NCBI RefSeq assembly: GCF_016026235.1
Contig: NZ_CP065613.1
From: Escherichia coli
GTDB lineage: Bacteria; Pseudomonadota; Gammaproteobacteria; Enterobacterales; Enterobacteriaceae
Direction: 5' to 3' (one strand)
DNA length: 64,000 nt
Position numbers: made by a program. How positions within the stretch are numbered: the stretch's first letter is position 1; every line of letters begins with the position of its first letter. Positions 21,001 through 27,000 of this stretch are shown here, piece after piece.

Positions 21001-24000
21001 AAAACTGTTCCGCAGACAGTAAGAACATTTGTAGTTAAAAAATTTAGCTAAACACATATGGATTTTCAGATGTGTTTTATCCGGGAGGCATTATGTTACT
21101 GGCAGGCGCTATCTTTGTCCTGACCATTGTATTGGTTATCTGGCAGCCGAAAGGTTTAGGCATCGGCTGGAGTGCAACGCTCGGCGCGGTACTGGCGTTA
21201 GTTACGGGCGTAGTACATCCGGGCGATATTCCGGTGGTGTGGAATATCGTCTGGAACGCGACGGCTGCGTTTATTGCCGTCATTATCATCAGCCTGCTGC
21301 TGGATGAGTCCGGCTTTTTTGAATGGGCAGCGCTGCACGTTTCACGCTGGGGCAATGGACGCGGTCGCTTGCTGTTTACCTGGATTGTCCTGCTCGGTGC
21401 CGCCGTTGCGGCCCTGTTTGCCAATGATGGCGCGGCGCTTATTTTGACGCCGATTGTCATCGCCATGCTGCTGGCTTTAGGATTCAGTAAAGGCACGACG
21501 CTTGCGTTCGTGATGGCGGCCGGATTCATTGCCGATACCGCCAGCCTGCCGCTTATTGTCTCCAACCTGGTGAATATCGTTTCCGCTGATTTCTTTGGTC
21601 TTGGCTTTCGCGAATATGCCTCGGTGATGGTGCCGGTGGATATCGCCGCAATTGTTGCCACGCTGGTGATGCTGCATCTCTATTTCCGCAAAGATATTCC
21701 GCAGAACTACGACATGGCGCTGCTGAAATCTCCCGCAGAAGCGATCAAAGATCCTGCTACGTTCAAAACTGGCTGGGTTGTTTTACTGCTTCTGTTGGTG
21801 GGATTTTTCGTCCTGGAACCGCTCGGCATTCCGGTGAGCGCCATTGCAGCTGTGGGCGCGCTGATTTTGTTTGTCGTCGCTAAACGCGGTCATGCGATTA
21901 ATACGGGTAAAGTCCTGCGCGGTGCACCCTGGCAGATTGTCATCTTCTCGCTCGGCATGTATCTGGTGGTTTATGGCCTGCGCAATGCCGGATTAACGGA
22001 ATATCTTTCTGGCGTACTCAACGTGCTGGCGGATAACGGCCTGTGGGCCGCGACGCTCGGCACCGGATTCCTCACCGCCTTCCTCTCTTCTATTATGAAC
22101 AATATGCCGACGGTACTGGTTGGCGCGTTGTCCATTGATGGCAGCACGGCATCTGGCGTTATCAAAGAAGCGATGGTTTATGCCAACGTGATTGGCTGCG
22201 ATTTGGGGCCGAAAATCACCCCGATTGGTAGCCTGGCAACGCTGCTCTGGCTGCACGTACTTTCGCAGAAGAATATGACTATCAGCTGGGGATATTACTT
22301 CCGTACAGGGATTATCATGACCCTGCCTGTGCTGTTTGTGACGCTGGCTGCGCTGGCGCTACGTCTCTCTTTCACTTTGTAATGAGATACTGATATGAGC
22401 AACATTACCATTTATCACAACCCGGCCTGTGGCACGTCGCGTAATACGCTGGAGATGATCCGCAACAGCGGTACAGAACCGACCATTATCTATTATCTGG
22501 AAACCCCACCGACGCGCGATCAACTGGTCAAACTTATTGCCGATATGGGGATTACCGTACGCGCGCTGCTGCGTAAAAACGTCGAGCCGTATGAGGAACT
22601 GGGCCTTGCAGAAGATAAATTTACTGACGATCGGTTAATTGATTTTATGCTGCAACATCCTATCCTGATTAACCGTCCGATTGTGGTGACGCCGCTGGGA
22701 ACTCGCCTATGCCGCCCCTCGGAAGTGGTGCTGGAAATTCTGCCAGATGCGCAAAAAGGCGCGTTCTCCAAGGAAGATGGCGAGAAAGTGGTTGATGAAG
22801 CGGGTAAGCGGTTGAAATAAAGCGGCGATATCCACTGCCGATAGTTGGTAAAGTGCGCTTTGTTTATGTCGGATGCGACGCTAACGCGTCTTATCCGATC
22901 TACAAAGTCATGAAAATTCAATAAATTGTATGTTATTTGTAGGCCTGACAGGCGTAGCGCATCAGGCGATTTTGCTATTTACACATTACTCCCTGCGTGA
23001 GATTCCAATTATCGCGTCCAGCATGGTGTATCAGTGAGCTGCTTAGTTATCAGCGATACAGTGCAGCAGTTTAAAGACGTACTGGATTATGATTTATCAG
23101 TGCTTTACACAACAAATTATTCAATAATTATAAGATACCTTAACCCATTTTATTATTACACATCTAAAACATCACAAAAATATCATTTCACACACTATCG
23201 GAGAACATCATAACTTTTTAAAATGAGCGCTTTTTGATAGTTGTTAACGTTTTCCTTTACGATACTATCAATGCCCTTTTTTATACACAAATATTACCGG
23301 GTGGAGATAAAAGGGAAGTCAAAGGTAATTATATCAGGAAGATATGACGCATGATATTTATTGTGCGTAGAAGAAAATCCATTCCTGCTCTAATTATCCA
23401 ATTTAAAAATCTTAGCATAAAACAGATGATGAATAAGGAATGTTATGTCAATTGACTTTACCCCAGGTATGATAAATACATATCACGGCGATATTTATAA
23501 CCGCACAACAGATACCGACAATGTTAAAACACCAGACACACCGATGTGGCCTTGTGATAATCGGGAAGAACAACAACCCATTAATTCCACATTCTCTGGA
23601 GAAGGATACAACCCTGAACAATATGATTTAGCGCGGCAACACCTCCCACAAATTTATGCGTGCCGCACGAACACCAAATATACAGATGCAGACTACTCAA
23701 AAGTTGTGGCTCAACTTGTAAGTCTTATTACTAACATTGAATCGATAAGTTCGACACCACTTACGCGGCAGGCACAGGAAATACTTAATCAAATTAATAA
23801 CATTAGATACGAAAAGAACAAAAGTGCTGAATGTCGAATCATTGTTGTCGCTAATCCTAAACCCGACAAGGCAATCATAACTAAAATTAGCGTAGAAGAG
23901 GGAATACCAGTAAGATTCAGTGTCCAAACCATGTTTTCAGATACTAATTTTATTGCTGAACAACGAGCTGACTTACCGACTAATATAAAAGATATTCAAA

Positions 24001-27000
24001 GCCTGTATCAAAAAATGACGAAGTTATATATTGAGCACAGTGAAAATAAAAACAGGATGAAAGTCTTTGCCGGAACCAACTTTATTGATTTCAATATGAC
24101 AGGACAGAACCTGTCCGGGTTCGTTCTAACCTTGTCAAGGTTTTATTTCGAAGATCTACTTAATATAAATTTCACTGACGCAAATTTAGGTGACACTATT
24201 TTTTCACATAAAGAACACCCTACCCCAAAATTATATAAAGACGAACAATATCTTGACAAACAAATCGAAGGTTTATTTTCAACATTATTAACCATTAATG
24301 ACAACTTTTTACGAGCAAAAGCGGAAATTGCTTCGACAATAATTAAATTTTTAGAGGCCAGGATAACCAATCTTTCATACAACGACATATTAAAATATCA
24401 GCAAGAATTCCAAAAACAATGTTATAAGCAAGTTAAAGCCTTTACGACACTCTCCCGATACAATAAAATTCAAACATGGGCAGAAATGTCTGAATATCAA
24501 TTCGAAGTATTTCAATACGAGACGCTTAACCCAAAAAAAATGTCACGCACGCCTTATTTAAAGAGGCCACTTTCTGATGAAAAAGATATAAATTATGGGG
24601 TGAAAATAGAAATACCATCTGGTAAAAGAATTCGCTTATCAAATCATTATCAGAATATAATACCATAATATTGATTATTAGCACTTTATAATCATTGAAT
24701 AAAAATAGATTTTATGTAATTTTAAAACAAAGGGTTATATTATGGGGCGATGGATACTCATGCCACGCCCCAAAATAACGGAATTGAACTAAACAGAAGG
24801 GATATAAACATCAGACAGGTTTACGTTACTATCAGGCATATCGCCTCAGAATCAGATGAAAACTATAAAGAAATATCTATTATGGTTTTAATATTTGTTG
24901 ATAAGGATAGTAACATGAACATGACAAAAGGTGCACTCATACTCAGCCTTTCATTTTTGCTTGCCGCATGTAGTTCAATTCCGCAAAATATCAAAGGCAA
25001 TAACCAACCTGATATTCAAAAAAGTTTTGTTGCTGTTCATAACCAGCCGGGGTTATATGTTGGTCAACAAGCGCGCTTTGGTGGGAAGGTTATCAACGTT
25101 ATCAATGGCAAAACGGATACGTTGTTAGAAATCGCTGTATTACCGTTGGATAGCTATGCGAAGCCTGATATTGAAGCCAACTATCAGGGCCGACTGCTCG
25201 CCAGACAAAGCGGCTTCCTTGACCCAGTGAACTATCGTAATCACTTTGTTACCATCCTCGGTACCATTCAGGGTGAACAACCAGGCTTTATCAATAAAGT
25301 CCCGTATAACTTCCTGGAAGTGAATATGCAGGGCATCCAGGTGTGGCATTTGAGAGAAGTGGTTAATACCACCTATAACCTGTGGGATTACGGCTATGGT
25401 GCATTCTGGCCGGAACCGGGCTGGGGTGCGCCTTACTACACCAATGCGGTGAGTCAGGTAACACCTGAGCTGGTCAAATAACACCACCGAAAGATGCAGA
25501 TGCTTTCTCAGCATCTGCATCATGTATTACATAAAATTAATATACAGTAAGCTAACTATTATTATTATAAGCCCTGTCCTGTTAATTACCTTTGGCAAAC
25601 TGATTATAAAGTTAATGTCCGCACCAGGAGTCGGTTATGTTTCTTATAATTACCAGGGATACGATGTTCTTCACCGCGATGAAAAACATTCTGAGTAAAG
25701 GTAATGTCGTTCATATACAGAACGAAGAAGAGATCGACGTAATGTTGCATCAGAATGCCTTCGTCATTATTGATACATTAATGAATAATGTATTTCATTC
25801 TAATTTTCTCACTCAAATTGAACGATTAAAACCTGTCCATGTCATTATTTTCTCCCCCTTTAATATTAAACGCTGCCTGGGGAAAGTGCCGGTGACCTTT
25901 GTTCCGCGGACTATCACTATCATTGATTTTGTCGCACTCATCAATGGCAGTTACTGCTCTGTGCCTGAAGCGAATGTGTCACTTTCGCGCAAGCAACATC
26001 AGGTACTGAGCTGCATTGCGAATCAAATGACAACGGAAGATATTCTGGAGAAACTGAAAATATCGCTAAAAACGTTCTACTGCCATAAACACAATATCAT
26101 GATGATCCTCAATCTTAAGCGGATCAATGAGCTGGTACGCCATCAGCATATTGATTATCTGGTGTGAACGATTAATCAATATAAAGAGGCCCAGCAATAA
26201 ATAGCCAGACCTCCCGTTAATTATACGTTATGCAGCAACGCCTTCCGGTATCAGCGAAGCAATTTGCTTACGCCATTGCGCTTGCTCCTGTTCGCCTTCT
26301 GTACGTTGACCATAAAGTTGCGCTATCTGCGTACCATCATGGGCAAACAATTCCAGACTGGTTACGTAGCCATCGCTGGTCGGTTTACGGGTAACCCAGG
26401 CTTCAGCAATGCTCTCTTCTAATAGATGAAGAGTAAACGTCGGGTTGAAAATATTCAGCCAACCTTTCATTGGCACCACTTTTTCTACCACACCAGTGAA
26501 AATCTGTACGCAGCCACGGTTGCCAACAAACACCATGATTTCATTACCATCCTGCTGTGCAGATTCAAGAATTTGCGCCAACGCACTGTTGGATACTTTG
26601 CAGGCCAAATCGTCTGCCACCAGATTGAACGCCTGTTGGCGCGTCAGATTGTGGCGCTTTAGCAACGTAAAAAACTGATGAACGTCGGTCATCGCCCGCC
26701 ACTCTTGCTCGACCACAGTGGCATCGGCTCGCGTTTGAACAACTGGCGCATCAACGGCTTTTAACTCAAGCGGCGTATTCTCATCGGTGATAAACCGTGC
26801 CAGAAGCTCACTCCATGCCGCCATATCGGTATTGTCGGTGGCATAAACTTTTAGTAATGCATCGCCCTGATGATCAAAGAACTGAATACTTTGGCGTTCG
26901 CCACGAGCCGTGTTTTCTTTGATGTGGAAAACACTGGCCCATTGATTGAGAAACAGACGTAAATCCAGCGCGCGTGGATTGAGGATCAATCCGGCATGTC

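Follow-up and report, generated by a model that had tools for sequence, protein, structure and literature searches.

The intact yhiS gene of Escherichia coli: a divergent orphan with a pentapeptide-repeat-like core and a history of repeated loss

Introduction

In Escherichia coli K-12 the gene yhiS is a pseudogene, split by the insertion sequence IS5, and the question raised by its locus is what an intact copy encodes and why many lineages discard it. A stretch of 64,000 nucleotides (nt) from E. coli contig NZ_CP065613.1 (RefSeq assembly GCF_016026235.1), here called the window, carries such a copy, flanked by arsC and slp, on the left margin of the acid fitness island. The open reading frame (ORF) runs without interruption from an ATG at 23445 to 24668, stop included, on the plus strand and encodes 407 amino acids (aa), precisely the coordinates and length given in an earlier sequence-only reading of this DNA. 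The explanation that we favour, and hold to be reasonably probable, is that yhiS is an accessory E. coli/Shigella gene, bound by H-NS and present here as a functional-looking allele, whose product has a core of linker, pentapeptide run and linker and would serve for binding or as a scaffold, not as an enzyme. The IS5 disruption in K-12 is already known and is textbook annotation; the additions made here are modest, namely the assignment of a repeat module, a hyper-variable block and a catalogue of independent losses.

A pentapeptide-repeat core

The central part of YhiS, aa 206–255 (24060–24209, plus strand), consists of ten pentads in unbroken succession, with F, L or M as the centre residue at every fifth position (208, 213 and so on to 253), and these centre residues are conserved between yhiS alleles. 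None of 20,000 shuffled sequences reached a run of ten, the maximum being seven. The peptide that the sequence-only reading had singled out by eye as pentapeptide-like corresponds to aa 216–253, and the periodicity that it reported is real. Alignment to the repeat units of other proteins places the run within a core module, aa 193–283 (24021–24293, plus strand), in which an ‘LY..K..G’ linker is followed by the pentapeptide run and then by a second linker, ‘LY..DK..G’.

An exhaustive HMMER (phmmer) search of 1.84 billion representative proteins returned one full-length yhiS cluster, many fragments and three unrelated proteins. The three non-Escherichia matches (P0150, P0158 and P0161, with library-wide E values of 1.3e-5, 1.4e-4 and 5.4e-4) each match YhiS aa 204–283 several times, and all are clear pentapeptide-repeat proteins (PF00805, E 1e-46 to 1e-80). 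When YhiS 193–283 was aligned with 11 repeat units of these proteins only one loop gap was needed and the linkers on both sides were matched, such that the core module equates to one super-repeat of ~69 aa in true pentapeptide-repeat proteins. A search of the Protein Data Bank (PDB) with a profile of 19 yhiS alleles found Rfr32 (2F3L), a pentapeptide protein, with E=0.0059; with the YhiS sequence alone E was 0.09, and the remaining weak matches of that sequence were mostly pentapeptide proteins. At the level of sequence, the YhiS core is thereby shown to be related to true pentapeptide-repeat proteins, and our reading is that it forms a genuine, short and divergent pentapeptide module of ~2.5 coils. 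The ten pentads would be enough for about 2.5 turns of a four-sided β-helix of the Rfr type.

Layout of the rest of the protein

On the N-terminal side of the core lie two regions. The first, aa 1–80 (23445–23684, plus strand), has a conserved start of 19 residues, in which the invariant residues cluster, and is then variable and probably disordered (predicted local distance difference test, pLDDT, 21–36); the ratio of non-synonymous to synonymous differences per site (pN/pS) is 0.30 for aa 1–20 and 0.44–0.75 for aa 21–80. The second, aa 81–200 (23685–24044, plus strand), is a putative α/β domain, modelled at low confidence as two helices, a five-strand meander and one helix. The C-terminal region, aa 284–407 (24294–24665, plus strand), is predicted with low confidence to be helical; it begins with an invariant LFSTLLTI.D and ends in a conserved tail, RIRLS.H.QNI.P. 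No hydrophobic N-terminus, Sec signal or transmembrane segment was seen in the YhiS sequence. The protein would be soluble, with the N-terminal tail and the uncertain α/β domain on one side of the core and the helical C-terminal region on the other.

Coding constraint

Six distinct intact alleles were read as DNA, those of the window, of K-12 with IS5 removed, and of L005, L006, L007 and L009; the yhiS of ATCC 8739 (L008) is nearly identical to the IS5-free K-12 allele. All six share their start and stop, and the encoded length is 407 aa, or 410 in L009. Pairwise Nei–Gojobori estimates between intact alleles reach 0.62 for synonymous divergence (dS) and 0.21 for non-synonymous divergence (dN), with dN/dS of 0.25–0.63. 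Between the window and L009, dS significantly exceeds dN (Fisher p=3e-12), and when the same 276 substitutions were placed at random the frame remained open in 0 of 20,000 trials. Such dN/dS values, together with an ORF retained across divergent alleles, point to real coding constraint, and the comparison of alleles shows yhiS to be truly protein-coding and under moderate purifying selection. The constraint is strongest in the core module (pN/pS 0.14–0.44), and the lowest values of all are found at aa 181–200 (0.14), 221–240 (0.21) and 261–300 (0.16–0.28). One segment, aa 341–360 (24465–24524), has a pooled pN/pS of 2.3 on a low pS of 0.074, and may be a variable surface patch or simply noise.

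Disruption in K-12 and repeated loss

In MG1655 (L001) a 1195-bp IS5 occupies L001 4746–5940 between direct repeats of TTAG, a 4-bp duplication of a YTAR target, and removal of the element with one TTAG restores the frame, giving an ORF (1224 nt, 407 codons) that is colinear with yhiS of the window. The two alleles share 94.7% and 96.4% nt identity over two aligned stretches and differ by 34 non-synonymous and 19 synonymous changes. The TTAG target is empty in the window (24186–24189), where it lies inside the codons for A-N-L-G of the repeat-like segment. The IS5 element and its TTAG repeats bear out the earlier statement that IS5 disrupts K-12 yhiS, a disruption which has already been published (PMC8170033, PMC11677980). 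The K-12 pseudogene (b3504, UniProt P37635; yhiS_1/yhiS_2, IS5 insH-11) is the same gene at the same locus, and differs in that only the K-12 copy contains IS5.

Judged by the alleles compared, K-12 is one of at least six independent losses of yhiS. In a megablast search of 5,426 complete E. coli genomes the ORF was matched in 4,365, with a coverage of at least 80% in 3,997 of them. Evenly spaced full-coverage matches (n=27) had the 1224-nt length in 15 cases and another length in 12, and the sequence was read for nine of these 12 off-length copies and for L004. Eight of the nine, as well as L004, have a T7>T6 deletion at ORF nt 755–761 (24199–24205) with a linked C4A7 variant of an A tract; L004 and L013–L020 read TTTTTTA for TTTTTTTA at this widespread −1 frameshift site (T6 tract at 24199–24204, plus strand; T7 in K-12-type alleles), and in most T7>T6 copies the first stop is at codon 282. 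Recurrent slippage at the T tract is disfavoured, since the eight sequenced cases share the linked C4A7 haplotype; the deletion is probably one old event that was spread by descent and recombination.

Frameshifts at an A8 tract (24533–24540, plus strand) lead to 371-aa products ending in PKKCHARLI. O157:H7 strain F1273 (C4A6) has such a product because a single base was lost from the A tract in a separate event, and 371-aa forms are found in four allele backgrounds (P0025, P0039, P0044 and P0052), Shigella dysenteriae included. K-12-type alleles have an internal A7 tract at ORF nt ~367 (~23811). In the window this tract is interrupted (GAAAAGAAC), and in L018 and L019, which were already frameshifted, it has grown to A9 and A10, a sign of ongoing slippage decay. 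In a B2-type avian pathogenic E. coli (APEC) genome (L003) ~0.9 kb has been lost, roughly 23822–24735, and a shortened arsC–slp locus (70% coverage, ~2.18 kb span) in 8 of 40 evenly spaced rows would suggest this for ~20% of genomes, the deletion itself being confirmed at sequence level in L003 only. Further losses include a 256-aa truncation (P0120) and a remnant of the 3′ 309 nt (H30). From the evenly spaced samples, we estimate roughly that yhiS is intact in ~40% of complete genomes.

The annotation of the gene is a trap for pangenome surveys, which will miscount yhiS. RefSeq, using the Prokaryotic Genome Annotation Pipeline (PGAP), labels the intact 407-codon yhiS as ‘frameshifted’, for example in FDAARGOS_943, where a clean read-through is annotated over 1117 nt, and the 371-aa frameshifted O157:H7 form (WP_001303709.1) is annotated as a normal coding sequence; apparently the broken 371-aa form serves as the reference protein. 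The coordinates concerned are L002 4001–5117, L004 3544–4659, L012 101–1216 and, in the window, 24533–24540.

Distribution and allelic divergence

All named hits among at least 120 listed matches in a collection of 5.8 billion proteins are from E. coli or Shigella, and the 1.84-billion representative library held no relative below 50% identity. A peptide-pattern scan of GTDB species representatives found no yhiS, and a 17-mer scan of them gave 70 matches of which only one was yhiS, on a contaminant contig. In the assembly of Ensifer sp. MPMI2T, the 93 C-terminal residues of YhiS are encoded at 95% identity on this 409-bp contig (L077, NZ_SRXN01000179.1, coverage 0.77), which is almost certainly E. 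coli contamination. The exhaustive phmmer search brought up no remote homologues of the N-terminal or the C-terminal region other than assembly-error fragments, such as P0160 from a frameshift-ridden assembly, and scans of YhiS against NCBIfam, PADLOC and PHROGs gave no match (no PADLOC-DB family at E ≤1). The gene is an E. coli/Shigella orphan.

Measured against the window allele, the YhiS proteins of E. coli fall at 96, 93, 87, 81, 76 and 62% identity and almost all have a length of 407 aa, so that alleles differ by up to 38% in protein. When complete genomes were grouped by identity of their match to the ORF, the bands contained 392, 2915, 442 and 614 genomes, each class being common. The alleles are mosaics, some of them reciprocal (P0038 and P0042). 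The 62% allele (P0118/L009) occupies the same arsC–yhiS–slp–dctR–chuS–chuA context, and in a sliding comparison with the window the flanks are 93–100% identical, identity falls to 71–83% over ~22700–24777, and 22853–23146 is unalignable. This hyper-divergent block (22700–24777) comprises yhiS and its upstream spacer and has conserved flanks on both sides; its right edge shifts between alleles from ~24585 to ~24790, as expected from intragenic recombination. In slp, 250 bp downstream of yhiS, dS is 0.016–0.05 and dN ~0 for the same genome pairs. On the evidence of these sequences, several deeply divergent yhiS allele lineages have been recombined into mosaics. No domain-scale region of yhiS has a dN/dS above 1, for which reason diversifying selection was rejected as the source of the divergence; the pattern looks like that of old or imported allele lineages under purifying selection.

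The neighbouring arsC (22395–22820) differs from that of K-12 almost only at synonymous positions (dS 0.29, dN 0.009). For this pair of genomes it is more divergent than yhiS (dS 0.08), and the ars operon of the window is hence a different recombinant haplotype, which implies that the wider region is recombination-active.

Genomic setting and regulation

The gene order in the window is arsR–arsB–arsC (20637–22820), yhiS, slp (24915–25481) and dctR (25637–26167), followed by chuS and chuA on the minus strand. The ORF has a GC content of 0.351, the arsC–yhiS spacer 0.357 and the spacer before slp 0.301, whereas arsRBC has 0.522 and the window as a whole 0.486; the gene and its upstream region are thus AT-rich, as had been remarked from the sequence. 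A Shine–Dalgarno-like AAGGA (23435–23439, plus strand) stands 5 nt 5′ of the ATG. It is the same in every allele read, even the most divergent (L009), and AATAAGGAAT(G/T)TTATG is unchanged in the window, K-12, L003, L005, L006, L007 and L009, with the DNA further 5′ diverging.

The 78 promoter islands of MG1655 include the arsC–yhiS spacer (22821–23444), which is H-NS-bound in all of the chromatin immunoprecipitation studies cited for it; islands of this class have been linked to horizontally acquired genes and are mostly transcriptionally inactive (PMC3661553). The gene has also been listed among high-affinity StpA sites, as an StpA/H-NS site (bioRxiv 10.64898/2026.02.10.705075), and overexpression of YdeO induced slp–dctR but not yhiS (PMC4222967). 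The proposal of horizontal acquisition made in the sequence-only reading stands as far as a foreign-looking character is concerned, given the AT-richness, the restriction to E. coli and Shigella, and a spacer in an H-NS-bound class tied to foreign genes.

A scan of the region for promoters and terminators gave a count that was not above the shuffled expectation. Its best σ70-like match (24230–24259, minus strand; 11/12, TTGTCA, an 18-nt spacer and TATAAT) is antisense inside yhiS, which is typical of the AT-rich DNA of promoter islands. A near-threshold Rfam match to the small RNA ES036 (CssrF) at 22904–22946 (plus strand; 36.2 bits with a gathering score of 37.6, E=1.6e-4) falls in the part of the arsC–yhiS spacer that is unalignable with the L009 haplotype. 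Upstream of arsR, at 20452–20535 (plus strand), Rfam gives a 103-bit match to AgrB, an RNA family that it types as antisense; dinQ is annotated in the gorA–arsR interval of related loci, that is, the interval holding this match. In many genomes, and in L004 (1560–2964) and L005–L007, an extra module of ~1.5 kb with an ArsR/SmtB-family regulator and a permease lies between arsC and yhiS; it is missing from the window and from K-12, and represents a second structural polymorphism at arsC–yhiS. The haem-uptake genes chuS/chuA (26228–29287, minus strand) directly follow dctR in the window, as they do in FDAARGOS_943 and in the APEC genome L003, whereas in K-12 dctR is followed by yhiD.

Possible functions of YhiS

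Pentapeptide modules would act as rigid interaction surfaces and not in catalysis, and YhiS showed no motif or family typical of an enzyme; taken together, these points make a non-enzymatic binding or scaffold protein most likely. Its conserved face would be formed by the repeat module and the helix that follows (LFSTLLTI.D). The protein is probably made only when H-NS silencing is lifted, and may be useful only under some conditions or in some niches, which would explain why many lineages discard the gene.

Several observations weigh against this account. PF00805, the only Pfam family seen for YhiS, misses its gathering score (11.6 bits vs 20.2, E=0.22) and covers only aa 240–253, so that of the pentapeptide-like segment claimed earlier the periodicity and the match to true repeat proteins stand, and the segment is short and below the Pfam threshold. 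AlphaFold2 with yhiS alleles only gave no β-helix, but low-confidence helices over the repeat region (mean pLDDT 42); the repeat-enriched alignment, with which aa 210–259 reached 10-residue block means of 72–80 and a bridge every five residues, already held pentapeptide proteins and is partly circular. The Foldseek lists are dominated by pentapeptide solenoids, none of them significant (best E 0.26 against the PDB and 0.006 against BFVD). The literature yielded no expression or protein data for an intact yhiS allele. The dN/dS of yhiS is relaxed (0.35–0.5) relative to its neighbours (~0 to 0.14 in well-sampled pairs), and by a rough estimate half or more of complete genomes have a broken copy, which fits a gene of little current use.

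The last two points belong equally to the view that yhiS is a horizontally acquired leftover without current function, drifting to loss, its likeness to pentapeptide proteins a relic or chance. The many independent inactivations, the further expansion of tracts in dead copies (A7 to A9/A10) and the H-NS silencing of the locus agree with it, as does the finding that neither a K-12 knockout nor an ASKA clone had a chlorhexidine phenotype (PMC8170033), albeit for an allele that was already broken. We nevertheless consider this view unlikely. An ORF of 407–410 codons with the same start, stop and Shine–Dalgarno sequence has been kept across a dS of 0.3–0.6, which random placement of the substitutions never reproduced; dN lies significantly below dS, with the constraint (pN/pS 0.14–0.28) centred on the repeat core and on the helix next to it; and the shuffles show that the pentad periodicity cannot be chance.

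A bolder form of the binding-protein account, to which we give rather little credence, is that YhiS mediates an interaction that has escaped recognition, whether as a translocated effector, be it a relic or one used only under particular conditions, or as a protein of conflict or immunity. Its core would bind a fast-evolving partner, balancing selection would keep its deep and recombining allele lineages, and lineages without the partner would discard it.

The part played by conflict in that proposal can also be put by itself: YhiS might be a weapon or a target in a conflict with phages, with competitors or with the host, such as a one-gene defence or immunity factor, under an arms race or frequency-dependent, balancing selection. 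The sharp bounds of the divergence (71–83% inside, 93–100% in the flanks; dS ~0.6 as against at most 0.05 in slp), the several allele classes that are all common, the reciprocal mosaics, the segment at aa 341–360 and the repeated gain and loss of yhiS would all suit such a history. However, dN/dS exceeds 1 over no region of domain scale and a lone 20-codon segment is prone to noise, PADLOC and PHROGs gave no match, purifying selection on old or imported alleles would account equally well for a high dS at a dN/dS below 1, and regional recombination imports, of which the divergent arsC is a sign, could explain much of the pattern. We judge it improbable.

No likelier, in our opinion, is that YhiS is a type III effector of the EspX/NleL or PipB/PipB2 kind, exported through the locus of enterocyte effacement (LEE) or the ancestral E. 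coli type III secretion system 2 (ETT2) with its N-terminal 19 residues as secretion signal. A resemblance to secreted effectors had been hinted at in the sequence-only reading. In favour of the effector view are the pentapeptide module, an AT-rich and H-NS-bound locus, the lack of a Sec signal, and an N-terminus that is predicted to be disordered and yet conserved in its first 19 aa; NleL (3naw) moreover ranks fourth in Foldseek, with a probability of 0.84. The comparison was made with EspX1 of O157:H7 Sakai, among E. coli effectors that contain a pentapeptide stretch the nearest one, which is likewise Escherichia-restricted with a sub-threshold Pfam pentapeptide hit. BLASTP gave weak collinear matches (E ~0.07–0.08), in which a 12-residue stretch pairs with GVFKTLASIDDK, but profile–profile comparison by hhalign gave a probability of 0.9%, over an unrelated region, and homology to EspX1 was rejected. 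Full-length or K-12-type copies are present in K-12, BL21 and ATCC 8739, strains that are not known to carry LEE, and in F1273, of the LEE-bearing serotype O157:H7, the 371-aa form is frameshifted and without the conserved C-terminal tail. No paper was found in which YhiS is named as an effector, and the hint was not borne out.

Qnr and MfpA consist almost entirely of pentapeptide coils (~8 or more) and form rod-like dimers. That YhiS is a DNA mimic of this type, protecting or inhibiting topoisomerase, is very improbable: the pentapeptide repeat is its only recognisable element, and MfpA and EfsQnr are in the Foldseek list without significance, but YhiS has only ~2.5 coils within 407 aa and its best sequence relatives are repeat proteins with PEP-CTERM or dockerin matches, not Qnr.

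Taken alone, a short pentapeptide module gives no function and is of little importance. Its assignment to the pentapeptide-repeat class does provide a first way into the structure and sequence of an E. coli orphan that is present in most strains, and the yhiS locus emerges as a sharply bounded hyper-variable spot of the E. coli chromosome with repeated independent loss, a pattern that usually marks conditionally useful or conflict-related genes.

Comparison with known systems

The yhiS spacer resembles those of other promoter-island genes in being AT-rich and H-NS-bound (PMC3661553); the promoter-island concept covers DNA and chromatin but not the YhiS protein, and it leaves the allelic divergence unexplained. 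Effectors of the EspX family, including NleL (EspX7), and of the PipB/PipB2 type are like YhiS in that their pentapeptide stretch is short or degenerate and forms part of a larger protein, and EspX1, whose named hits are confined to E. coli and E. albertii, also has alleles that vary between strains. Unlike these effectors, to which profile–profile comparison gave no homology, YhiS occurs in strains not known to have LEE and is frameshifted in O157:H7 F1273.

The closest likeness is to the pentapeptide-repeat proteins themselves (the PF00805/PF13599 clan, and Rfr32 of Cyanothece, PDB 2F3L), with which YhiS has in common the periodicity, the F, L or M at the centre of the pentad and the N or D before it. 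Nearest among them are the long super-repeat proteins P0150, P0158 and P0161, two of which have a sub-threshold PEP-CTERM match and one a sub-threshold dockerin match. Where the known long repeat proteins have dozens of pentads, YhiS has one module of ten, which sits between unrelated orphan regions and is free of a PEP-CTERM or dockerin anchor and of a signal peptide. YhiS is, then, a divergent member of a known repeat class that falls short of family membership in the Pfam sense, and it shares with P0150, P0158 and P0161 the super-repeat pattern ‘..TGxNFxGQNLT....ANFTDA....QLYSTxSYxDKxLxG’.

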